Below are positions 297 through 18,296 of a DNA stretch of 21,129 nucleotides, in pieces. The position numbers and the translations under genes were made by a program. This DNA comes from Elusimicrobiota bacterium. Lineage in GTDB: Bacteria; Elusimicrobiota; Elusimicrobia; UBA1565. A model generated the notes under the pieces. That model made no database searches. It was given only the letters and a program-made list of their open reading frames with translations, and had not been told where the DNA came from. How positions within the stretch are numbered: position 1 is the stretch's first letter; each line of letters begins with the position of its first letter. The DNA is taken from positions 1-21,129 of the forward strand of contig JBDRPD010000082.1 in the NCBI GenBank assembly GCA_043827405.1, read 5' to 3'.

Positions 297-2723
297 ATGG
301 CAAGAAAAAGAAACACTGCAAAGAGCGGGCGCAGCCTGCGCGCAAAAAAGCGCGCGCACCGCGGGCTCACCACCGCCGAGGCCAAGGCTATTGACGCTTA
401 CTGGCGGGCGGCCAACTATCTGTCGGTCGGCCAGATATACCTCTTCGATAATCCATTATTAAAAGAGCCTCTTAAGCTCAAGCATATCAAGCCGCGGCTG
501 CTCGGCCATTGGGGGACCACTCCCGGCCTCAACTTCATCTACGCGCATCTCAACAGAATCATCAGCCAGCGCGATCTCAGCATGATCTATCTGGCTGGTC
601 CGGGCCACGGCGGACCCGCGCTGGTGGCGAACACGTATTTAGAGGGGTCTTACAGCGAGTTCTATCCGCATATCGGACAGGACGCCGATGGGATGCGCAA
701 GCTCTTCAAGCAATTCTCCTTCCCCGGCGGGATTCCGAGTCACGTCGCCCCAGAGACTCCCGGCTCCATCCACGAAGGCGGCGAGCTCGGCTACGTCGTC
801 TCACACGCCTTCGGCGCGGTATTCGATAATCCCGATCTTATCGCGGCCTGCGTGGTCGGCGACGGCGAAGCGGAGACGGGCCCGCTCGCCGCTTCGTGGC
901 ACTCCAATAAGTTTCTAAACCCCGCGACCGACGGCGCGGTCCTGCCGATACTGCACCTAAACGGCTACAAGATCGCCAACCCCGCCGTGCTGGCCCGCAT
1001 CAGCCATGAGGAGCTGGAGGCATTTTTTCGCGGCTGCGGGTACGACCCATATTTTGTTGAAGGCTCCGATCCTGCGCGCATGCACCGGATCATGGCGGAA
1101 ACGCTGGACGAAGTGTTCGACAACATCCGAGATATCCAGGCACAGGCGCGCGCCGGCGGCAAGGTCGGTCGTCCGCGCTGGCCGATGATCGTTCTGCGCT
1201 CGCCCAAGGGCTGGACAGGGCCCAAACAGGTGGACGGCAAGAAGACCGAGGATTTCTGGCGTTCCCATCAGGTCCCGCTGTCCAAGCTGACGGAGAAGCG
1301 TTCGCACCTCAAGCTATTGGAAAAATGGCTGAAGAGTTATCACCCGGAGGAGCTCTTCGACAAAGCAGGCCGGCCGATCGGCCAGCTCTTGGAACTGGCG
1401 CCCAAGGGAGCGCGACGCATGGGGGCCAACCCGCACGCTAACGGCGGGCTGCTGCTTAAGGATCTGCGGATGCCCGATTTCCGGGATTACGCGGTCAAGG
1501 TGTCGAAGCCGGGCGCAGCGATGGACGAGTCGACGCGCGTCATGGGGAGGTTTCTGCGCGATGTGATGAAGTCCAATATGGACCGCCGCAACTTCCGCGT
1601 GGTGGGGCCGGACGAGACCGCGTCCAACCGCCTAAGCGCGCTTTTCGAAGTGACCGACCGCACCTGGCTCGATCGGACCATTCCGGAGGACGATCATCTG
1701 GCTCCCGACGGCCGCGTGATGGAGATTCTCAGCGAGCACACATGTCAGGGCTGGCTGGAAGGGTATCTCTTGACCGGTCGGCACGGGCTATTCTCCTGCT
1801 ATGAGGCGTTCATCCATATCGTGGACTCGATGTTCAACCAGCACGCCAAGTGGCTCAAGGTCACCCGGGACGAGATCCCATGGCGGAGGCCGATCGCCTC
1901 GTTAAACTATCTGCTGACTTCACATGTATGGCGCCAGGATCACAACGGATTCAGCCACCAGGACCCGGGCTTCATCGATCACGTAGTCAACAAGAAGGCG
2001 GACGTCGTCCGCGCCTACTTCCCGCCGGACGCGAACTGCTTATTATCGGTAACCGATCACTGTCTTCGCAGCCGCAACTACGTGAACGTGATCGTAGCCG
2101 GCAAGCAGCCGCAGCCGCAGTGGCTCGACATGGACGCCGCGGTCAAGCATTGCACCAAAGGAATCGGTATCTGGGAGTGGGCCAGCAACGACCGGGGCTC
2201 GGAGCCGGACGTGGTCATGGCATGCTGCGGGGACGTGCCGAGCTTAGAGACCTTGGCGGCGGTGGAGATCCTGCAGCGGCAGTTCCCCCCCCTGAAGATC
2301 CGCGTGATCAATGTGGTGGATCTGATGACTCTGCAGAGTCAAGACGAACATCCGCACGGACTTTCGGATCGAGAGTTCGACGCGCTCTTCACCAAGACAA
2401 AGCCGATCATCTTCGCCTATCACGGCTATCCCTGGCTGATTCACCGCCTGACCTACCGGCGGTCCAACCATAACAACCTGCACGTGCGCGGCTACAAAGA
2501 GGAGGGGACCACGTCGACGCCGTTTGATATGGTGGTTCTCAACGACCTTGACCGCTTTCACCTGGTGGAGGATGTGATCGACCGCGTTCCGCAGCTGGGA
2601 TCGGTGGCGGCCTACGTCAAGCAAGCCATGCGCGATAAGCTTATCGAGCACAAGCAGCACATCGCGAAGCACGGCATCGATATGCCCGAGATTCGCGACT
2701 GGATATGGAAGGGTGGCAAGTAG
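297..2723 (+). CDS. xfp: Xylulose-5-phosphate/fructose-6-phosphate phosphoketolase
   Basis: Family motifs [43 protein letters not shown], ThDP-binding GDGEAETG...[35 protein letters not shown] and GYKEEGTT. Start reassigned to ATG 297 (GGAGG 7 nt upstream) instead of 48. Confidence 0.97.
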
Positions 2724-2755: not shown

Positions 2756-2783
2756 TTGACAGAAAGTTACAGCCTGCTATAAT
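2756..2783 (+). promoter_or_regulatory. Perfect-consensus sigma70 promoter with extended -10
   Basis: TTGACA (2756-2761), 16-bp spacer, TG at 2775-2776, TATAAT (2778-2783). Predicted TSS about 2790. Confidence 0.88.
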
Positions 2784-2788
2784 CATAG

Positions 2789-2834
2789 AAGTCACGGAGG
2801 CTCGCGCCAAGGCGCGGGCGGCGTGGCTTTTTTT
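2789..2834 (+). terminator. Long hairpin followed by T7 (intrinsic-terminator-like)
   Basis: AAGTCACG/CGTGGCTT lower stem, internal loop, GCTCGCGC/GCGCGGGC upper stem, then TTTTTTT at 2828-2834. Confidence 0.6.
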
Positions 2835-2857: not shown

Positions 2858-2944
2858 ATGAAACAGCTTATTACTCGGAGCGCGTTCTACGCATGCGATT
2901 TCGTCATGGGTAATATGCGTCCCGGCAAGGGGGTGCCGATGTAG
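2858..2944 (+). CDS. Putative leader peptide, 28 aa (MKQLITRSAFYACDFVMGNMRPGKGVPM)
   Basis: ATG 2858 to TAG 2944, with an A-rich start context (CAAACAT-ATG-AAA) and G-rich weak SD (GGGGCGGA). It lies between a strong promoter and a terminator, and its last codons are complementary to the terminator's 5' flank. Confidence 0.6.
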   Translation: MKQLITRSAFYACDFVMGNMRPGKGVPM

Positions 2945-2975: not shown

Positions 2976-3008
2976 CCCATGCTCCAAATCAGGAGTGTGG
3001 GTTTTTTT
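2976..3008 (+). terminator. Intrinsic terminator (attenuator) upstream of the tRNA-like RNA
   Basis: CCCATGCTCC-AAATCA-GGAGTGTGGG, a 10-bp stem with two G-U pairs, followed by T7 (3002-3008). Confidence 0.82.
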
Positions 3009-3027
3009 ATGCACAGCTTTACACGAT

Positions 3028-3101
3028 TACGGAGTCGTCGAAGCGGAAAGACAGCGGCCGCAAGGCTGAAAATACGGGTTCGAATCCCGTCTCTGTAATC
3101 A
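3028..3101 (+). ncRNA. tRNA-like RNA lacking a canonical anticodon loop (GCAA tetraloop instead)
   Basis: Acceptor TACGGAG/CTCTGTA, extendable to 10 bp (3025-3034/3091-3100). U8; D arm GTC...GAC with A14 and GG in the loop; stem CGGCC-GCAA-GGCTG; perfect T arm ACGGG-TTCGAAT-CCCGT; 3' end ATCA rather than NCCA. Confidence 0.82.
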
Positions 3102-3123
3102 GAATTTTGCAGGAAACAGATCT

Positions 3124-3155
3124 GGGGACCGCACCCCCCGTGGCTTGCGGTCCCC
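3124..3155. terminator. Hairpin between the tRNA-like RNA and the convergent mscS stop
   Basis: Perfect 10-bp inverted repeat GGGGACCGCA / TGCGGTCCCC with a 12-nt loop. U-tracts are weak on both strands. Confidence 0.6.
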
Positions 3156-3160
3156 GCAAT

Positions 3161-4273
3161 TTAGCCGGGGATATTCTGGATCGAAACCGGGCTGCCGACG
3201 TGGACGGTCTGGGTGGGGAAGGCGATCTCCACGCCGAGCGCCTGCATCTCGCGCACGATGCTGAGGAAGAACTTCTGCTTGGCATCGAGGAACTCCGCCC
3301 ATTTGGTGGTGCGGGTGAAGCAGTAGATGAGGATGTCGAGCGAGTGCGGCCCGAAGTTGTCGAAGTTGACGAGGAAGAAATCTTTGCGGATATTGTCGTC
3401 GGTCTTGATGAGCTCGCGGATTTTATTAACCGCCGCCTCGATCTTGTCGGCGGGGGTGTTATAGGTCAGCCCGAGACGGAAGGTAATCCGCCGCTTGTTC
3501 ATGCGCGACCAGTTATTAATGATCGAGGTCGTAAACATCATATTGGGAACCGTAACCAAGCTATTGGCGAAGGTCCGCACCCGGGTGGTGCGCAAACCGA
3601 TCTCCTCCACCGTCCCCTCGCAGGACGGCATCTCGATCCAGTCTCCGACCCGGAACGGCCGGTCGAATAGAACGACGATAGAGCCGAACAGGTTGGACAG
3701 GCTGTCCTTGGCCGCCAAAGCGACCGCGGCGCCGCCGAGGCCGAAACCGGCCAGCAGGCTGCCGACCGAGTAGCCCATGTTCTGCAGGAACAAGATGCCG
3801 CCGATGATGAGGAGAAAGACCTTCAGCGACTTCTGTACTATCGGCAGCAGCTGCTCGTCAAGGCCGAAGGCGGTCTTCTTGGCGTGCTTGGCCCATTCGA
3901 CGAAAACACCATCGATGACTCGCAGACAGAGCCAGAGCGTGAACAGAACCGTTACCGAACGAAAGCCCGCGTAGAGAAAGCGCCGGAAGTCGACCGGCTC
4001 AGTCGGGACCGGCAGGGAGTGAATGGCCAGGTAGAGGCCGAGCGCGAGCAGGGCCAGCGGCAGCGGCTTGCGCACGACCTCGATCACGACATCGTCGAGG
4101 CGGGTCTTGGTCTTATCGGCCGCCCGCGACAGGCCGTCGAGGAACTTCTCGCACAGCCGGCGCGACACGAAGCCGGCGAAGACGAAGAACAACGCCAGCA
4201 GGTACTGGTAGACGGCAATGCCGAAATAGGGTTGGCTCAGGAAACGTCCGGCCGCGTGCGCGAATTCCTGCAT
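3161..4273 (-). CDS. mscS: Small-conductance mechanosensitive channel, MscS family (YnaI-like, extra N-terminal TM helices)
   Basis: SLLAGFGLGGAAVALAAKDSLSNLFGS, DRPFRVGDWI, GTVEEIGLRTTRVRTF, VTVPN and IAFPTQTVH motifs; about 5 hydrophobic helices. Confidence 0.95.
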   Translation of the reverse strand: MQEFAHAAGRFLSQPYFGIAVYQYLLALFFVFAGFVSRRLCEKFLDGLSRAADKTKTRLDDVVIEVVRKPLPLALLALGLYLAIHSLPVPTEPVDFRRFLYAGFRSVTVLFTLWLCLRVIDGVFVEWAKHAKKTAFGLDEQLLPIVQKSLKVFLLIIGGILFLQNMGYSVGSLLAGFGLGGAAVALAAKDSLSNLFGSIVVLFDRPFRVGDWIEMPSCEGTVEEIGLRTTRVRTFANSLVTVPNMMFTTSIINNWSRMNKRRITFRLGLTYNTPADKIEAAVNKIRELIKTDDNIRKDFFLVNFDNFGPHSLDILIYCFTRTTKWAEFLDAKQKFFLSIVREMQALGVEIAFPTQTVHVGSPVSIQNIPG

Positions 4274-10136: not shown

Positions 10137-10610
10137 ATGAGCCGTCCGCGACCGAACGAAGGCTTCACGCTCATCGAGATGCTGGTCGTCGTGATCATCA
10201 TCGCGACTTTGGCCTCGATCAGCACCCCGCAGTATTTCAAGGTCGTCGAAAGCGCCCGCATCTCGGAAGCCAGCTTCCTGCTGTCCACCATCCGCAACGG
10301 CCAGGAAGGCGTCCTCGCCAGCGCGGGCGCATACATGCACAGCAATGCCGAACTGCCCGCCCTTGACGTCGAGCTGCCGGGCGAGGATCCGACCTACGGC
10401 ATGAAGTACTTCTTCATGGTCGTCGGCGAAGGCTCGCCGGACGGCTGTCCGCCCAACGGCGCGTACTACAACATAGCTTTCATCCGTTATGGGGAAAACG
10501 CCAAGGTCATGCGCCGCTACTTCGAAAACTACATGATGGTCTACGAGCGCTGCACCAACCAGATCACATTTCCCGGCTGCCCGAACTGCGCCAACGATTT
10601 CAAACGCTGA
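10137..10610 (+). CDS. Type IV pilin-like protein (prepilin N-terminal methylation domain, PilE-like)
   Basis: G|FTLIEMLVVVIIIATLASISTPQY..VVESARISEA class III signal with Glu5; four Cys in the C-terminal half. Confidence 0.92.
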   Translation: MSRPRPNEGFTLIEMLVVVIIIATLASISTPQYFKVVESARISEASFLLSTIRNGQEGVLASAGAYMHSNAELPALDVELPGEDPTYGMKYFFMVVGEGSPDGCPPNGAYYNIAFIRYGENAKVMRRYFENYMMVYERCTNQITFPGCPNCANDFKR

Positions 10611-10613
10611 GCT

Positions 10614-11267
10614 ATGCTGAAATACCTCATCATCGTCGGAGCCCTCATGATCGGCGGCGGCGTCTGGTATGCCCAGCACAGCAGCGGGGTTATCGAACAG
10701 CCGGCACCGCCTCCTCCTCCTCCTCCTCCGCCGCCGCCGCCGCCGCCGCCGCCTCAGCTGTCGCCGGAGCAGGTCGACGAAGTCCGCACCAAGCTTTTCG
10801 ACGCCGACCGCGAGGTGCGCCTGGCCGCCTTGGAGAAAATAGCGAAATTCGTCGGCCGCGATGCCGACGCGCTGCTCACCCAGCAGCTGAAGATCGATTC
10901 GGACGCCGATATTCGCATCCGCATCCTGCGCCTCCTGGAAAAGCGCGGACCGGAGGACGCGCCGCGGCTGATCTATCCGGCCCTGCGCGACACCGAGAGC
11001 AATGTGCGCGTCGCGGCGATCACCTCGCTGAAAAACATTTACGCCTACTCCTCAGGCAACGCCCTCACCCAGATGCTCTACGATGTGGATGAGGGCGTCA
11101 AGCGCGCCGCGCTAGATGCCCTAAACCACTTCGCCGAGCGCAAAATCTCCCGGCGGCAAACCACGCGCAGCTACCAGCTTCCCCCTGACTTCGCATCGCT
11201 CTACATGAAGGCGATGGCCAATGCCTACGGGCACAAAGAAGCGCCGGCGCCGGAACCGGCGCGATAA
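10614..11267 (+). CDS. Membrane-anchored HEAT-repeat protein with polyproline linker
   Basis: N-terminal TM helix, 16 consecutive Pro, then four HEAT-like units (LFDADREVRLAAL, DSDADIRIRIL, LRDTESNVRVAAI, LYDVDEGVKRAAL). Starts 3 nt after the pilin stop. Confidence 0.85.
   Translation: MLKYLIIVGALMIGGGVWYAQHSSGVIEQPAPPPPPPPPPPPPPPPPQLSPEQVDEVRTKLFDADREVRLAALEKIAKFVGRDADALLTQQLKIDSDADIRIRILRLLEKRGPEDAPRLIYPALRDTESNVRVAAITSLKNIYAYSSGNALTQMLYDVDEGVKRAALDALNHFAERKISRRQTTRSYQLPPDFASLYMKAMANAYGHKEAPAPEPAR
10707..10754 (+). repeat. Trinucleotide tract CCG(CCT)6(CCG)8CCT encoding Pro16
   Basis: Read directly from the sequence. Confidence 0.95.
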
Positions 11268-12422
11268 TCAGGCGAGAGACCGCGAACGGCTGTTAAACAG
11301 CCCGGTCAGCCGTACGGATTCCGCGGCGAGGCGGCTGCGCTTAAGCATCGCCAGCATTTCCTCGGAAGCGGCGATACGCAGGGCGGCGAGCTTGTTCATC
11401 AGCAGGCTCCCGGGGCAGGAGGTCGCCGTATGGTGGGCATGTCCCTCGAGCGCGCCGCTCTTTTTGGGATCGACCCGATACTTGACCGCCAGATAGGCGA
11501 CCAGGCGCTTGAGGCTTTCCATTTGATCCGGCGTGGGATCCTTCTTCATGAAGTTCCCCATTAAAGCGATCCCCAGGTTGCCGCGATTGGCCCCATGCGC
11601 ATGCGCGCCCAGCATATTGGACGGGCGGCCCTGAACCACCCGGCCGTCGCCGGCGATCAGAAAGTGGTAGCCGATATCCTGGAAGGCCTGCTTGCCCTCC
11701 AGCGCCCGGCCGACCATATGATAGTGCTGAATATTGCGCGCCGTCTGCGCGGTATTCTGCTCGCCGTGGGGAGTATTTCCCTCCGTATGATGCACCGTCA
11801 TCCGCACCGGCGTCGTGGGAGAGGCTTCTCCTTTGCGCTTTTTGGCGCCCCAACCGAGACGGTCCAGCACCCCGTAGGCCTTGTCGTAAGCTTCCTGCTG
11901 GAAGCGCTCATAGGCCTCCATGACCACCGGGCCGCCCGGGATCACATTGGCCAGCGCCCGCTTCTCCCGCAGCTGGCTTTTGGCGAGCGCCAGAGGAACG
12001 TCGCTCGTCTTAAGCCCCCCGCCCGAACCAAGACCCGCAGAGGAATACGCGGTCTTGGTGAGGCCGTCGAAGCACTTGCGGCCGCCGCCGCCGGCAAAGA
12101 CGGGCGTCGAGGACTTCGCCCGTACCTGACCGAACGACTTGGCCCCGTCGAACAGCCGGCTCTGCGCCTGAGCGGACGACTCCCCGACGCCGCCGATGGA
12201 ACCCTTGGAGGATGCTCCCGGCGCATCGACGCAGTACTCGTCCCCCATCTTCGAATAGGCCGCACTGTAGCTGTCCGCGCTCTGCTTGCGGGCGGACGAC
12301 TGCCGCGGCGCCGGAGAGGAATCCGACGTGTTGGCAGCATCCTCATCACAGTTGCAGGCCGTCGACATGGAGACCGCGAGGGCGAGGGCAAGCAGGCGGT
12401 TGAAGGCAGGCGGCGTTCGCAT
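11268..12422 (-). CDS. Exported N-acetylmuramoyl-L-alanine amidase (Amidase_2/PGRP-like) with a low-complexity N-terminal region
   Basis: TVHHTEG, IQHYHM, DIGYHFLI, GR...GAHAHGAN, GIALMGNF and GH...TSCPG zinc-amidase motifs; signal peptide ending STAC (possible lipoprotein). Confidence 0.9.
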   Translation of the reverse strand: MRTPPAFNRLLALALAVSMSTACNCDEDAANTSDSSPAPRQSSARKQSADSYSAAYSKMGDEYCVDAPGASSKGSIGGVGESSAQAQSRLFDGAKSFGQVRAKSSTPVFAGGGGRKCFDGLTKTAYSSAGLGSGGGLKTSDVPLALAKSQLREKRALANVIPGGPVVMEAYERFQQEAYDKAYGVLDRLGWGAKKRKGEASPTTPVRMTVHHTEGNTPHGEQNTAQTARNIQHYHMVGRALEGKQAFQDIGYHFLIAGDGRVVQGRPSNMLGAHAHGANRGNLGIALMGNFMKKDPTPDQMESLKRLVAYLAVKYRVDPKKSGALEGHAHHTATSCPGSLLMNKLAALRIAASEEMLAMLKRSRLAAESVRLTGLFNSRSRSLA

Positions 12423-12599: not shown

Positions 12600-15500
12600 A
12601 TGGATCCCGCCAAAAAAATAAGCCAGGATGTCGAGTCCATAAACAATCTCGACGCCGCGAAGATGACGCTGCGCTGGTCGCTCGGCCGCCTGCGCCTGAT
12701 CGAGGAGCGCAATAAGGCTCTCGAGACCGAGGTCGACAAGGCCCAGTCGGCGCTGCTCGCCCAGAGCAAGGCTTCCAACAACGAGCAGACCTCGGTGCTC
12801 GACCGCAAGGATTACTACCAGAAGCTGGAAAGCCTGCTCTCCGACTACTGCAAAGGGACGCTCGACCTGCAGTCCCTCCTCGGGCGCGAAGCCGACATAG
12901 AGAAGCAGGAGAAAGACCTGCTGAAGAACCGCGGCGACTTTGAGCGCGAGATCGCGGAGCGCAAGGACGCCCTCGAGCGCCGCTTCAAGAAGCTCCAAGC
13001 CGAGATTGAAATTCAGGCCGAGCGCCAGACGGAGAACATCGAGAGCATCCTCGAAGACCGCAAGAAGCAGCTCGACAAAGCCTACCTCGACCGCGAGCTG
13101 GCGATCCGCTCGACCGACCACCAGCTGGAGCTGCGCGAACAGGCGATCACGGACCTCGACCGGCGGCGCGACGAGCTCCAGGAGGAGCGCAAACACGCGC
13201 TGGAATCCCGTATCGGACAGTGGGAGGTCGAGCTTCAAGAACAGAAGGCGCTGGACAAACGGCAGGCGGAAGCCGAGCGCAAAACCCTGACCGAGCAGGC
13301 GAAGCAATGGGAAGGGCAGGCGCGCCGCTACCTCATGAAGATCGAGGAGCTGGAAGCCGGCAAAGCCCAGCTGCAGGAGCGGGAGCTGGCCCTGACGCTG
13401 GAGACCGAAAAGCGCATCGAAGCGCTGAAAAGCGAGCATGAGGCCAAGAGCCGCCACCTTTCCGCCCTGTTCGAGGACCGGCGCAAGGAGCTGGAGGGCG
13501 TCGAGCATGAGCTGCGCAAGCAGAGCGCGGCCAAGTCGGTCGAGCTTAAGCAGCAGGTCGCCGACGCGGAAACGCGCATCCGGCTCCTGGCCGACAACCT
13601 GGAGCGCTCCAACAACGCCGTCGACGACCTGCGCAAGCAGCTGGAAGACTCCAAAAACACCGCGCAAAGCTTTAACACCGCGGCCGAGGTCGAGCGGGCC
13701 AAGACCGAGAAGTGGCGGCAAGCCGCCGCCGAAGCCCGCTCCGAGGTCGAGAAGCTCAAGGAAGAGTTCTTCAAGAAGCAATCCGACAAGGACATAGAAC
13801 ATACCTCGCAGGAAGAAGCCTACCTCGATGATCTGCGCCGGAAAGAAGCCGAGCTGAAGGCGCACTGGGAGAAGCGAAACAAGCAGCTTGACGAGGACCG
13901 GCAGGTCTATCAAGCCAAGCTGGACGCCGAGCTCGCCGCCAAGGTCCGTGAGCTCAGCCAGGAGCACGGAAACCGCCTGCAGGCGGCGAGCGAAGAGAGC
14001 CGGGCGCAGATCGCCGCGCTCACCAAGCAGGTCAAGGACGCGGAGGCCAAGATCGGCATCTGGCAGGAAGCGACCTGGGACGCGCGGCGCGACACCGCCG
14101 CGCTCAAGGAGCGCCACCTGCGCGAGGACGCCAAGCTGGAGCACGAGCATACGGAGAAGCTCCAGGCCCTGCTCGGCGATTTCAAAGAACAGGAAGGCGC
14201 GCTCGAAGCGACGTTCAAGAGCAAGATCGAGGAAGTGCGCGCCAAGCACGCCGAGCGTGTCCGCGAGCTGGAAAGCCGCATCAACTCCCTCGAGGAGAAA
14301 AACGCGACCCTCGAGGACTCCGTGGACCGCACGCGCCAGAGCGCCGAACAGAAGGACGAGCGCGGCCGGGCGGCGGAGCAGCAGATCGAAGTGCTCAAGG
14401 AAAACCTCGCCGTCGAGCGCGGCCGGACGCAGGAGCTGCTCAAGGCCGCCGAGAAGATGCGCGCCGAAAACGCCGGCCGCATGTCCGAGCTGACGCACCG
14501 CGTCGAGGCGGAGATCCTCAAGCTCAAGAACGCCGAAGGCGCGCTGCAGGCGGAGAAAGAGAAAACGGCGGTGCTGGAACGCCAGCTGATCGAGTCCCGG
14601 GCCCGCATCCAGGCGCTGGAGGAAGCGGCGATTCACGAGCGCGAGCGGGCGGAGAATTTTAAAGGCGATACCGAGGCGGTTCGCGAGGACCTGCGCAGCG
14701 CCTACCGGGTAAGGACCGAGGAGCTCCGCACCCAGCACGCGGCGGAGACGGCCCGGCTCGAAAAAGAGATCGGCGCCCTCAAGCAGAAGCTGCAGAGCGG
14801 AGAGGTCACTTTGGCCGCGGAGCAGAACGCGGCCGCCGAGGCGCACAAGCTGCTGGCGGCCGCGCAGGACAAGCTGCGGGCGGTGGAAGACACGCTGGCC
14901 CAGGAGCGCGCCCGCGCCGAAGAGCAGCGCGCCGCCTCATCGCATGCCCGGCTGGAGCTGCGCGACGCGCATGCCGCGGAAAGCGAGAAGCTCGAGCAGG
15001 AGTTCGCCCAGCGCGAGACCGAGCTGCGCGGGACGATCGAATCGCAGGCGCAGAAGCTCAAAAACGAGGAGCACCGCAACCTGCACGCCGAGCGCGTGGG
15101 CGCCGAGCTGCGCAAGCGCCTCGCGGAAGCGGAAAAGCAGACCGGGGACCTGGAGCAGACGCTCGAGCAGTCCCGCGGCGACGCCGACAAGCTGCGGCGC
15201 GAGCTGACCCGCCGGCAGGAGGAGCTGGAGCTGGAGCGGCGCGCCGAGCGCGAAGCCCTGCACAGCGAGCACGCCGCGCTCATCGCCGAACTGCAAAAAC
15301 GCATCGAACAGGCCAACCAGATGATCGCCGGCCGGGACGAAGCGCTGGCGGTCGAGCGGCAGAAGACCCAGGACCTGGACAAGCGCCTGCTCGTCTTCGT
15401 CGATCGAACCCGCGAGCTGGAAGAAACGCTGGGGCAAGAGCGGGCCGCCGCCGAAAAAGCGCGCAAAGAGGCGGAGCGCACTCTGGCCGAGCTGCGCGGA

Positions 15501-18296
15501 AAAGGCGCTTACGAACGGACGACGATCATCGGCGAGCACGCGGCCATGGTCGGCGAGCTGCAAAAACGCATCGAGCAGGCCAACCAGATGATCGCCGGCA
15601 AGGACGAAGCGCTGGGGATCGAACGGCAGAAGACCGAAGATTTGGAGAAGCGCGTCCTCGCCTTCCTCGAGCGGACCCAGGAGCTCGAAGAAACGCTGCA
15701 GCAGGAGCGCGGCGGAGCCAGCACCTCGCGCACCGAACTGCAGAAACAGCTGGAACAGGCGCTGCAAACCGTCGCCGCCGGAGAGGAAGCGCAGGCGGTC
15801 GAAAAGCAGAAGACCGCGGAGCTGGAAAAACGCATCTTCGCCTTCACCGAACGCGAGAACGCGCTTGAGGACACGCTGCAGCGGGCGCATACCGAGCGCG
15901 ATTGCGCCCAGGGCGAAGCCAGCGCCGAGATCGAGAAAGTGCGCGCCGCCGCCGTGCGCGAGCGCGAAGCGCTGCGGTCCGAGCACGCGGCGAACATGGA
16001 GGAGATGCGGCGGCGCAACGAAGACCTGGCGCAGGAGATCGCCAAGGGACACGAGGAGCTCTCGGTCCGCGCGCACAAGATCGAGCGGCTCGAGGAACGC
16101 ATCGCCGCCTTCCAGAAGCGAACCGACGCCCTGGAGCTGGCGCTCAGCGAGGACGCCCGCGAGCGCCTCGAGAAGGGCGAAACCCTGGACGAAGTCACGC
16201 GGAAAGCCCCCGGCAAGATCGGGCGCATGCTCAGCCAGATGTTCGAGAAGGACCGCGCGCTCGAGGCGGCCTGGCTGGAGCGCAGCCGCGAGCTCGACCA
16301 GGCATACGAGGAACGCAACCGCGAGATGGAGGAGGCGCATGCCGAGCGCCTGGCGGAAATCGAGCAGTCCCTCCTCAAGGAGCGCGAAAAATCGCAGCAG
16401 CTCATGCAGGCGCTCATGGAAGCGCAGAAGGCGCAGGACAAGCTCAAGCATGAGCAGGCCGAAGCCCTGCAGAATCAAGCCGGAAAGCTCTCCGCCAAAG
16501 CCGCTGAGAAAGTAGAGTCCATGAGCGCCGCCGAGGCGGCCCGCACGCTGGCGCTCAAAAAGCAGATCGAAGCCCTGCACGATGAGCTCACCGCCACGCA
16601 GGAAACCCAGCAGGCGCTGATCAAGGCGCACTCGCACGAGGTCAAGGAGCTCAGCGAAAAACTCAAGAACGAAGCCTATAAGAAAGAAGAAAGCCTTATC
16701 GCCGGCGAGGCCGGCCGCATCGAGGAACTCAAAGGCGAGATCCGGGCCCTGCAGGAAGACGTAAAGGCCGCGCACAAGGCGCGCGAGGAGCTGAAAAAAG
16801 AGCATGCCGAGGAGCTCCACTGGCGGGCGGAGAAGCTCAAGGAGGATTTCTACAAGCAGGAGGAGAACCTCATCGCCGGCGAGGCCGCGCGCCTCGAGGA
16901 GCTGAAAAAGAAAATTGGCGCCCTGCAGGACATGCTCAAGGGCCGCGACGAGAGCCTGGTCACCGAAACCCGGCGCTCGGAAGCCCTGGAAAAAAGAATC
17001 GCCGTCATGGAGGAGCGCCTGCACAAGCAGGAGCGCGCGCTCGCTGAAGAGCGGGCGGAATCGGAGAAACTGCGGGAGGCCGGCTCCACAACCAGCGAGC
17101 AGGCGGTCCGCAAGCATCTCGAGCTTGCCGATAAGATGCGCACCGAGCACGCCGCGCGCATCGCCGAAATGCAGCAGCGCGTGGAAGCCGCCCTGGCCGA
17201 GATTCAGGCGCGCGAAGAGCGCATCACCGAGGAGAAGCTCAAGCGTGCCGAAAACGAGCAGCAGGTCGCTGAGGCCCAGGAGAAGGAACGGGAGCTTAGA
17301 GAGCTGCTGGCCGCCGAGAAGGAGCGCGCCGCGGCCTACAATCAGCGCATCGCCTCGCTGCAGGAGCATCTCAAGAACCTCGAAAGAACGCTGGAAAACG
17401 AGCGTCAGGAAACGGAGAATCTCCGAAACACCGACGCGGTAACTCATGACGAGGCCGTCCGCGAGGCGCTCGAGCACGCGGAGAAGCTGCGCGCCGAGCA
17501 TGCGGGCCGCATCGCCGAACTGCAGAAGCACGTAGAAAGCGCCGTCGCCGGACTGCAGGAGCGCGACGAGGAGCTGAGCGCGGCCCAGCTGCGCAGCGCG
17601 GAGCTGGCCAAGCGCAGCGACGCCTTAAAGGCCCGCATCCAAACCCTCGAGGCCAACCTCGAGGCGGAACGCAAGAGCGTCGAAGAGGCGAAGCGGGAAA
17701 CCGAGCGCGGCCGCGATGAGGAGTGGAACGAATACCGCCGCGCTCTGGACGAGGACCACAAGCGGCGGCTGGCGGAATTCAAATCCGAACGCACTTTGCA
17801 TGCGCAGGAAATCGCGCAGCACCGGGCGGAGCTTGAAAAGGAGCGCGCCGAGCTCGAGGATGAGATCACCGCGAGCCGGGGCAAGCTGGCCGCGGAGCAG
17901 CATCGCCTGGCGGCGCAGTCCGCGGAAACCAAGGCCGCCCTGGAAAAGGAACGCGCGCGCAGCGCCGAGGAGCTCGCCCAGGCCAAGGCCGATATGGAGG
18001 AGGAGCTCGCGGTCCGCGAGAAGAACCTGGAACAGGGACGCAAGAAGCTGGAGGAGGAGAAGGCGCGCAGCGCCGCCAAGATCGACAACGTGCGCAAGGA
18101 ACTGCGCGCCAAACAGGATGAGCTGACCGCGCACGTGGACAAGCTGCTTAAAGAAAAGGCGGAGCTCGACAAGCACCGCCAGGAGCTGTCGAAGCGCTGG
18201 GAGGACAAGCGCCAGAAGCTCGCGCTCCTCAAGGCAAAGATGCTAAAGGATATAGAGGAAACAATCCGTAAATCCCGCGGCCGGCCGCAAAATTAA
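12600..18296 (+). CDS. Giant cytoplasmic coiled-coil protein, 1898 aa, with internal repeats
   Basis: E/K/R/A/L/Q-rich helical sequence, almost proline-free. No TM helix, signal peptide or Walker motif. Internal 89-aa and 58-aa repeats. Confidence 0.9.
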   Translation: MDPAKKISQDVESINNLDAAKMTLRWSLGRLRLIEERNKALETEVDKAQSALLAQSKASNNEQTSVLDRKDYYQKLESLLSDYCKGTLDLQSLLGREADIEKQEKDLLKNRGDFEREIAERKDALERRFKKLQAEIEIQAERQTENIESILEDRKKQLDKAYLDRELAIRSTDHQLELREQAITDLDRRRDELQEERKHALESRIGQWEVELQEQKALDKRQAEAERKTLTEQAKQWEGQARRYLMKIEELEAGKAQLQERELALTLETEKRIEALKSEHEAKSRHLSALFEDRRKELEGVEHELRKQSAAKSVELKQQVADAETRIRLLADNLERSNNAVDDLRKQLEDSKNTAQSFNTAAEVERAKTEKWRQAAAEARSEVEKLKEEFFKKQSDKDIEHTSQEEAYLDDLRRKEAELKAHWEKRNKQLDEDRQVYQAKLDAELAAKVRELSQEHGNRLQAASEESRAQIAALTKQVKDAEAKIGIWQEATWDARRDTAALKERHLREDAKLEHEHTEKLQALLGDFKEQEGALEATFKSKIEEVRAKHAERVRELESRINSLEEKNATLEDSVDRTRQSAEQKDERGRAAEQQIEVLKENLAVERGRTQELLKAAEKMRAENAGRMSELTHRVEAEILKLKNAEGALQAEKEKTAVLERQLIESRARIQALEEAAIHERERAENFKGDTEAVREDLRSAYRVRTEELRTQHAAETARLEKEIGALKQKLQSGEVTLAAEQNAAAEAHKLLAAAQDKLRAVEDTLAQERARAEEQRAASSHARLELRDAHAAESEKLEQEFAQRETELRGTIESQAQKLKNEEHRNLHAERVGAELRKRLAEAEKQTGDLEQTLEQSRGDADKLRRELTRRQEELELERRAEREALHSEHAALIAELQKRIEQANQMIAGRDEALAVERQKTQDLDKRLLVFVDRTRELEETLGQERAAAEKARKEAERTLAELRGKGAYERTTIIGEHAAMVGELQKRIEQANQMIAGKDEALGIERQKTEDLEKRVLAFLERTQELEETLQQERGGASTSRTELQKQLEQALQTVAAGEEAQAVEKQKTAELEKRIFAFTERENALEDTLQRAHTERDCAQGEASAEIEKVRAAAVREREALRSEHAANMEEMRRRNEDLAQEIAKGHEELSVRAHKIERLEERIAAFQKRTDALELALSEDARERLEKGETLDEVTRKAPGKIGRMLSQMFEKDRALEAAWLERSRELDQAYEERNREMEEAHAERLAEIEQSLLKEREKSQQLMQALMEAQKAQDKLKHEQAEALQNQAGKLSAKAAEKVESMSAAEAARTLALKKQIEALHDELTATQETQQALIKAHSHEVKELSEKLKNEAYKKEESLIAGEAGRIEELKGEIRALQEDVKAAHKAREELKKEHAEELHWRAEKLKEDFYKQEENLIAGEAARLEELKKKIGALQDMLKGRDESLVTETRRSEALEKRIAVMEERLHKQERALAEERAESEKLREAGSTTSEQAVRKHLELADKMRTEHAARIAEMQQRVEAALAEIQAREERITEEKLKRAENEQQVAEAQEKERELRELLAAEKERAAAYNQRIASLQEHLKNLERTLENERQETENLRNTDAVTHDEAVREALEHAEKLRAEHAGRIAELQKHVESAVAGLQERDEELSAAQLRSAELAKRSDALKARIQTLEANLEAERKSVEEAKRETERGRDEEWNEYRRALDEDHKRRLAEFKSERTLHAQEIAQHRAELEKERAELEDEITASRGKLAAEQHRLAAQSAETKAALEKERARSAEELAQAKADMEEELAVREKNLEQGRKKLEEEKARSAAKIDNVRKELRAKQDELTAHVDKLLKEKAELDKHRQELSKRWEDKRQKLALLKAKMLKDIEETIRKSRGRPQN
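14466..16250 (+). repeat. 267-nt (89-aa) degenerate tandem repeats within the coiled-coil gene
   Basis: An 'EHAA.IAELQKRIE'-like motif starts at 14466, 14733, 15000, 15267 and 15534 (exact 267-nt spacing), then follows a 180-nt truncated unit and a further unit at 15981. The copies at 15267 and 15534 are also similar at DNA level. Confidence 0.85.

Follow-up and report, generated by a model that had tools for sequence, protein, structure and literature searches.

A tRNA-like RNA encoded on an Elusimicrobiota contig has the stems of a cloverleaf, with a GCAA-capped arm in the position of the anticodon arm. What such an RNA is, and what it might be for, is the question raised by this locus, which we analysed within a stretch of DNA of 21,129 nucleotides (the window). 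The element is, with high confidence, tRNA-derived, non-decoding and positioned behind a leader (Table 1). Farther along the window, at 12600-18296, lies an ORF of 1898 residues that is coiled-coil-like and strongly A-skewed.

Table 1. Coordinates of the leader, the tRNA-like element and their surroundings in the window.
Feature	Position	Strand	Remarks
Phosphoketolase gene	297..2723	+	upstream neighbour, outside the unit
sigma70-type promoter	2756..2783	+	12/12 consensus, 16-nt spacer, extended -10
T1, first hairpin and U-run	2788..2834	+	z -5.43
Leader ORF	2858..2944	+	28 codons; no Pfam match
Antiterminator strand	2924..2933	+	within the final codons of the ORF; pairing partner 2974-2983
T2, intrinsic terminator	2976..3008	+	10-bp stem, U-run
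tRNA-like RNA	3025..3101	+	GCAA-capped arm in anticodon position; tRNA positions 1-73 = 3028-3098
Acceptor stem	3028-3034/3091-3097		7 bp, one G.U; read from the letters
Acceptor extension	3025-3027/3098-3100		extends the acceptor to 10 bp
U8; A14; G18G19	3035; 3041; 3045-3046
D-stem	3037-3039/3050-3052		plus G13.A22
Capped hairpin	3055-3059/3064-3068		closed on GCAA (3060-3063), C3059-G3064 closing pair
T-stem	3074-3078/3086-3090		loop with TTCGAAT
A73	3098		followed by TCA
Hairpin H	3124..3155	+	10-bp stem; conserved
MscS-family gene	3161..4273	-	convergent neighbour, ends the unit, outside it

The element has several features of a canonical tRNA, including the 7-bp acceptor, the GG of the D-loop and a 5-bp T-stem with a TTCGA loop, and lacks one, the 7-nt anticodon loop with U33. 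Positions 3028-3098 match the Rfam tRNA family (RF00005) at 38.4 bits (cut-off 29, E 5.3e-5), the third-lowest score among the 49 tRNA matches of the genome. This is the sole Rfam match in the window at E<=1, with none to tmRNA, Y RNA, T-box or other families; the genome's own tmRNA is located elsewhere, outside the window. ARAGORN calls no tRNA at the element and no ordinary tRNA gene in the window. (The program also finds no tRNA-Asn in the 98%-complete assembly G000, the genome containing the window, probably because of an assembly gap.) The folding z-score of the element is -4.31, and none of 200 shuffles is equally stable. In ViennaRNA the pairs of the GNRA-capped arm have probabilities of 0.98-0.99, while an alternative register with a 7-nt loop and the anticodon CGC is 7 kcal/mol worse (probability 0.01). 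The earlier description of a cloverleaf with intact elbow and paired acceptor, extendable to 10 bp, in which a GCAA tetraloop replaces the anticodon loop and precludes normal decoding, is thus confirmed. The same program favours D/T mispairing over the cloverleaf by 1.5 kcal/mol, with pair probabilities of 0.06-0.13 for the D and T arms in a calculation that leaves out tertiary contacts, and this mispairing would count against a strictly kept L-shape.

The 3' end had been read as ATCA and taken to make aminoacylation doubtful. It indeed encodes no CCA, but neither do most tRNA genes here: only 15 of 46 encode one (the 49 Rfam matches minus the element and two weak matches), so the missing CCA alone says little. 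An indel or assembly error at 3058-3064, the possibility on which the annotation had made its own reading depend, is refuted by a contig from run X4 (another sample and study, depth 4.1), which spans 2994-3250 with no gap and carries the same 77 letters. All 4 of its substitutions in 257 letters lie outside 3025-3101, although 0 changes in the 77 nt of the element against 4 in the remaining 180 nt is not a significant difference (~0.24, an estimate). Run X1, the probable source run, also agrees with the window letters at the element. The element lacks its own promoter, which suggests co-transcription inside a longer transcript, and no ECF-type promoter lies upstream.

The main context of the element, absent from the first-pass annotation, is a leader attenuator and a collapsed tRNA array. 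In trpL- and thrL-type attenuators, a short ORF ends in an antiterminator strand that pairs alternatively with the 5' arm of a terminator followed by a U-run; termination is favoured when a ribosome has reached the stop codon, and read-through when it has stalled. The window leader shares the ORF-antiterminator-terminator geometry and the U-run, but contains no run of codons for a single amino acid and has an additional terminator (T1) ahead of the ORF; its homologs differ further in that their cargo consists of tRNA genes. A search for 12/12 sigma70 promoters found 2 sites (0.2 expected), and the promoter is conserved across 18 aligned loci. A T1-type hairpin with a U-rich run is present in all 18 loci folded, and its 5' arm holds a conserved RGUCACGG motif (2790-2797 in the window), a motif that the search pattern itself contained. 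In 18 of 19 loci, a frame of 20-54 codons begins at the first ATG downstream of T1 and closes shortly ahead of T2, with the stop 18-31 nt before T2 in the 17 loci where T2 was placed by script; shuffles give such a frame in 0.018-0.074 per locus, the loci being related and not independent. The T2 helix is 99.3% paired, with two pairs changed on both sides (0/500 shuffles as high), and the antiterminator is paired in 97.8% of 135 cells in 15 loci, with weak covariation (30/500 shuffles as high). The two helices are mutually exclusive, as in leader-peptide attenuators. From these features we infer a ribosome-read transcription attenuator.

In the window, the ATG used by loci L091 and L095 is lost and replaced by a new ATG in the same frame 4 codons behind it, so that the switch looks maintained; insertions ahead of the leader ORF stop are of +3 and +6. 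The leader peptides are unlike one another across loci, no clear Shine-Dalgarno site was found before the ORF in the loci examined, and there are no control codons that would single out one amino acid or a small group of them. The codon mix is wider than that of ordinary genes but no wider than that of nucleotide shuffles (only 2 of 18 loci exceed the shuffle null in their number of distinct codons at p<0.05), and a "pan-codon sensor" as a selected trait was rejected for this reason. Since the codons are varied but not beyond shuffles, and the peptides dissimilar, the leader is read as a general gauge of elongation and not as a sensor of one amino acid. A T-box reading was also rejected, there being no Rfam match and no T-box motif. 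The contig graph of run X1 branches at 2749-2778, where another sequence also leads into the promoter from upstream; the unit may thus have two upstream neighbours in that sample, and run X2 supports the junction seen in the window.

The relatives of this leader were reached through a weak DNA match on the promoter, which led to locus L031 of genome G002, where the leader heads 24 tRNA calls and an RNA ligase gene (of the T4 Rnl1 type, 10360-11388, behind the array). At ~11676-11738 the same locus has another tRNA-like element, one with a shortened arm that ARAGORN does not call. In all, 19 distinct leader loci were found. L101 was left out, having T1 and lacking the ORF and T2 (at its positions 3001-3620 the same promoter and T1 are followed by a short structured motif repeated several times), and alignment A5 excludes L104, L119 and L120 on account of their differing T2 sequence. 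At E<=1e-3 a model of the leader end has matches in 25 of the order's 101 genomes, and at E<=1.1e-9 in 18 of 101, many of the genomes being incomplete; the spread within the order is patchy, as it is for the tRNA clusters known as L-arrays. A pattern scan of genomes gave 17 matches (5 repeats of known loci and 5 by chance), and all 12 true ones are titled Elusimicrobia; a metagenome scan also gave 17 (6 copies of L031 DNA, 5 by chance). A two-mismatch motif search over 401 genomes of the phylum returned exact matches only in G000 and G002, others being at control level, and viral scans for the leader gave 0 matches. Outside the order, a 150-genome sample of the class contained two convincing matches to the leader model (G386 and G397), both without the T1 motif.

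The leader usually heads arrays of spare tRNA genes, and these often collapse, leaving paired stubs. The decay takes many forms, including fused halves and missing genes. The Gln(UUG) slot is a paired stub with its acceptor stem kept in L163, L164 and L166, and a slot matching Arg(CCU) is a paired stub in six loci. L108 retains an odd D-armless tRNA-like RNA and two tRNAs; L119, L120, L175 and L182 retain one such RNA and a small ORF; L104, L109, L174 and L176 have no tRNA at all, only the small ORF. Behind the window leader, the capped element is the only tRNA-type gene left. As judged from these gene contents, the window fits into a series running from long arrays to loci without any tRNA, as a less reduced stub.

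Other components of these loci deserve mention. The small ORFs (~50-60 codons) are of two kinds, one in L104, L119, L120, L175, L176 and L182 and the other in L109 and L174; their proteins would be made under the same leader switch. The D-armless RNA is a conserved tRNA-Ser-like RNA with a non-canonical T-loop and, borne on an arm that is short or long, a loop that is mostly GUGAC (L090, L091, L093, L106-L108, L114, L119, L120, L124-L126, L163-L167, L175, L182); where loci have collapsed, it is often the last element to remain. RNase P RNA-like genes, recognized by eye from conserved motifs, lie inside the tRNA arrays of L106 (~1840-2130 after the promoter) and L093 (~2290-2580).

Downstream of the element, hairpin H has homologs in L031, L109 and L174. 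In L109 and L174 it lies directly behind T2 with no tRNA-like element between, so the element is not needed to make H; in L031 the Gln(UUG) gene lies two tRNA genes ahead of H, which fits collapse of an array. Positions 3138-3146 of H are complementary to the leader 5' end (9 bp, one G.U), and in 16 loci H, or the loop of the odd tRNA-like RNA, is complementary to the leader 5' end over 4-11 contiguous pairs. The 9 contiguous pairs in the window are reached by 1 of 308 background windows. Covariation is marginal (run 7.3 versus 6.95 for swapped partners, p 0.038; Watson-Crick pairs, p 0.59), the swapped pairs being nearly as good because the leader motif was fixed by the search pattern. We tentatively suggest that H may feed back on T1 through pairing with the leader 5' end. 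The idea that the capped arm pairs functionally with H (a 9-bp match) was rejected: the H stem is kept in L174, which has no tRNA-like element, and the match is probably due to chance. The 5' strand of the acceptor (3029-3034) shares six letters with the leader (2794-2799), and the 3' strand could pair with the leader 5' end over 8 bp, again probably by chance.

The ancestry of the element appears split between two sources. The likeness to tRNA-Gln noted from the sequence at first pass is real: among 223 tRNA calls from arrays and the genome, the best match is the tRNA-Gln(UUG) of L031, with 51 identities over 75 columns. The second source is a family belonging to a widespread module, in which an ECF-type promoter precedes a U1-A72 tRNA-like RNA whose anticodon loop varies or is odd; next comes, in many cases, a hairpin, and then a sigma70 promoter driving a short terminated RNA, the 5' end of which shows complementarity to the anticodon arm and frequently to the D arm as well (L128-L131, L135-L141, L145-L147, L150, L154, L032; G000:C24:15576-15651). 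In 18 loci the match between the two RNAs is 10-15 nt, versus a mean of 5.5 for swapped partners, and the module looks like an RNA-only antisense pair; no description of tRNA-like RNAs paired with covarying antisense small RNAs was found in the literature searched. When a model of the element was run over the 101 genomes, a member of this family came first among the matches listed, at 57.6 bits versus 51.0 for the array Gln, and the identities over 65 positions are 47 and 46, respectively. The element shares with the family U1-A72, the lack of an encoded CCA (found in 0 of 21 members) and an acceptor extension, at least 3 extra pairs being present in 10 of 21 members versus 1 of 44 housekeeping tRNAs (p 1.8e-5). 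The stem of the arm, on the other hand, matches the array Gln at 9 of 10 positions versus 5 of 10 for the family, and the 5' half of the element resembles an array tRNA-Cys. A chimera is possible on these comparisons.

The cap itself can be traced further. Its 11-12-nt core is that of the variable arm of housekeeping tRNA-Leu and is identical to that of this genome's own tRNA-Leu(UAA); at least 10 nt of it occur in 3 of 324 distinct tRNA calls, all of them Leu variable arms. Among the best 150 of 278 matches to the element model, no GNRA-capped homolog is present in the 100 other genomes of the order, and none of the 32 top matches inspected has a 4-nt loop (at most 48 candidates were scored per genome, so a weak homolog could be missed). 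A viral scan for the capped arm returned 6 matches, none tRNA-like. The suggestion that the tetraloop was selected therefore goes beyond the evidence: compensatory changes in the stem may predate the loss of the loop, and selection on the cap is unproven from one lineage.

Taking these observations together, we favor the view, at a probability of roughly 0.45, that the element is a non-decoding structural stub, the last tRNA-type gene of a collapsed, attenuator-gated operon of spare tRNAs, made only when ribosomes stall. A ribosome reaching the leader stop codon would cover the antiterminator, allowing T2 to form, and nothing downstream would be made. When the ribosome stalls or lags, the antiterminator would pair with the 5' arm of T2, and the polymerase would read into the element and H. 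The element would fold with intact elbow and acceptor and read no codons, acting as punctuation, i.e. a block or cut mark for tRNA-processing nucleases, and might set the 5' end of H or stabilise it. The genome has an RNase P RNA, which counts for such a role. A selected role is plausible, if not provable from one lineage, because an intact switch has hardly anything else left to govern. Counting against it are the production of H without the element in L109 and L174, the lack of a GNRA-capped homolog in the 100 other genomes among the matches listed, and the low weight given by ViennaRNA to the cloverleaf. A sealed 10-bp acceptor may also hinder RNase P rather than attract it.

An inert relic, a pseudo-tRNA caught in array decay whose GCAA cap stems from a deletion or from conversion with a tRNA-Leu variable arm as the donor, with no selection involved, is rather unlikely, though it accounts for much: the restriction of the capped element to one lineage among the matches listed, the many forms of decay in this family, including fused halves and missing genes, and the identity of the cap core with the variable arm of the resident tRNA-Leu(UAA). 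Arrays of this type can include pseudogenes, as in Anabaena (3 of 26; PMC8421152). Simple decay is harder to reconcile with four intact stems, elbow bases and a 10-bp acceptor around a fully remodelled loop, with a promoter, ORF and two terminators that remain intact though only the element and H lie downstream, and with an identical element in the strain of a second study.

Less likely again is a stress-induced tRNA mimic or decoy that titrates or signals to proteins binding the elbow or acceptor (a synthetase, EF-Tu, a tRNA-end nuclease or a sensor of uncharged tRNA), or that is leucylated for non-ribosomal use. The element would then be the only non-regulatory cargo behind an apparently maintained switch, and it has A73, A14, A15-U48, G18G19/U55C56 and U54-A58, the E. 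coli LeuRS elements given in PMC6614811, in a list for E. coli that does not include the anticodon. Short-armed tRNA-like elements are also present among 7 viral matches, which are not homologs. The element nonetheless has no long variable arm in the Leu position, its sealed 3' end has no CCA, no partner gene adjoins it, and it is not conserved in the 100 relatives among the matches listed. A fuller RNA stress circuit, in which stalling opens the attenuator, the anticodon-less mimic acts on tRNA-binding proteins, and H pairs with the nascent leader and holds T1 open, is decidedly unlikely; if true, it would be one of two Elusimicrobiota modules using the tRNA anticodon position for RNA-RNA pairing.

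Quite improbable is a relocated member of the ECF-promoter family, with an anticodon arm that serves, or once served, as a pairing surface for an antisense small RNA. The top model match among those listed (57.6 versus 51.0 bits) and the shared U1-A72, extended acceptor and missing CCA would be explained, but the ECF-type promoter is missing upstream, no antisense partner was found genome-wide either behind a promoter or before a family-type terminator, the arm stem sides with the array Gln, and the 9-bp match of the arm to H is probably chance. A GNRA cap is moreover a poor start for loop pairing. That the element is an assembly error, or a decoding tRNA read as Cys (GCA) or Ala (CGC), has a negligible likelihood. 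In favour of this reading, the tetraloop contains GCA, a 7-nt loop can be formed on paper with CGC as the anticodon, and the 5' half is Cys-like. Against it, the X4 contig has the same letters, the alternative register is far less stable, U33, U73 and G3.U70 are all absent, and ordinary genes for Cys and Ala(CGC) tRNAs are present elsewhere in the genome.

Known systems offer partial parallels to a structural stub within an attenuated operon. The mascRNA-type elements are processing signals with a tRNA-like fold. In plant mitochondria, t-elements are tRNA-like folds used as cut signals (PMC1920247). Like both, the element is tRNA-like and non-decoding, and it is predicted to lie inside a longer transcript, but it is bacterial, its acceptor is closed over 10 bp, and two relatives have H without it. 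The pseudo-tRNA tRNA-Other of Bacillus cereus (PMC3399842) is tRNA-shaped, is not used in translation, may have a function and flanks a genomic island; the present element is likewise tRNA-shaped and non-decoding. Allo-tRNAs, according to PMC5389517, have 8/4 or 9/3 acceptor branches and anticodons, and irregular tRNA polycistrons hold clustered tRNAs, some inactive in translation; the element differs in its 7/5 branch and lack of an anticodon loop. The loci homologous to the window most resemble L-arrays in being long, patchy clusters of spare tRNA genes with some dead genes, and their leader anatomy predicts induction under translational stress; unlike them, the window locus has no working tRNA. 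In Anabaena, L-array control is attributed to the repressor TrcR (PMC10272220), and the strings "attenuat" and "terminator" have 0 occurrences in PMC8421152. Neither leader-peptide control of tRNA arrays nor a GNRA-sealed bacterial tRNA was found in the literature covered; the supplements of PMC8421152 and PMC5389517 may list such leaders or irregular tRNAs.

The capped tRNA taken alone is an oddity of one lineage, and the larger result is its setting. A ribosome-read switch conserved across the order seems to gate arrays of spare tRNAs, so that the switching on of such arrays becomes testable outside the cyanobacteria; at the window locus, the switch survives with a non-decoding tRNA as its sole tRNA-type cargo.
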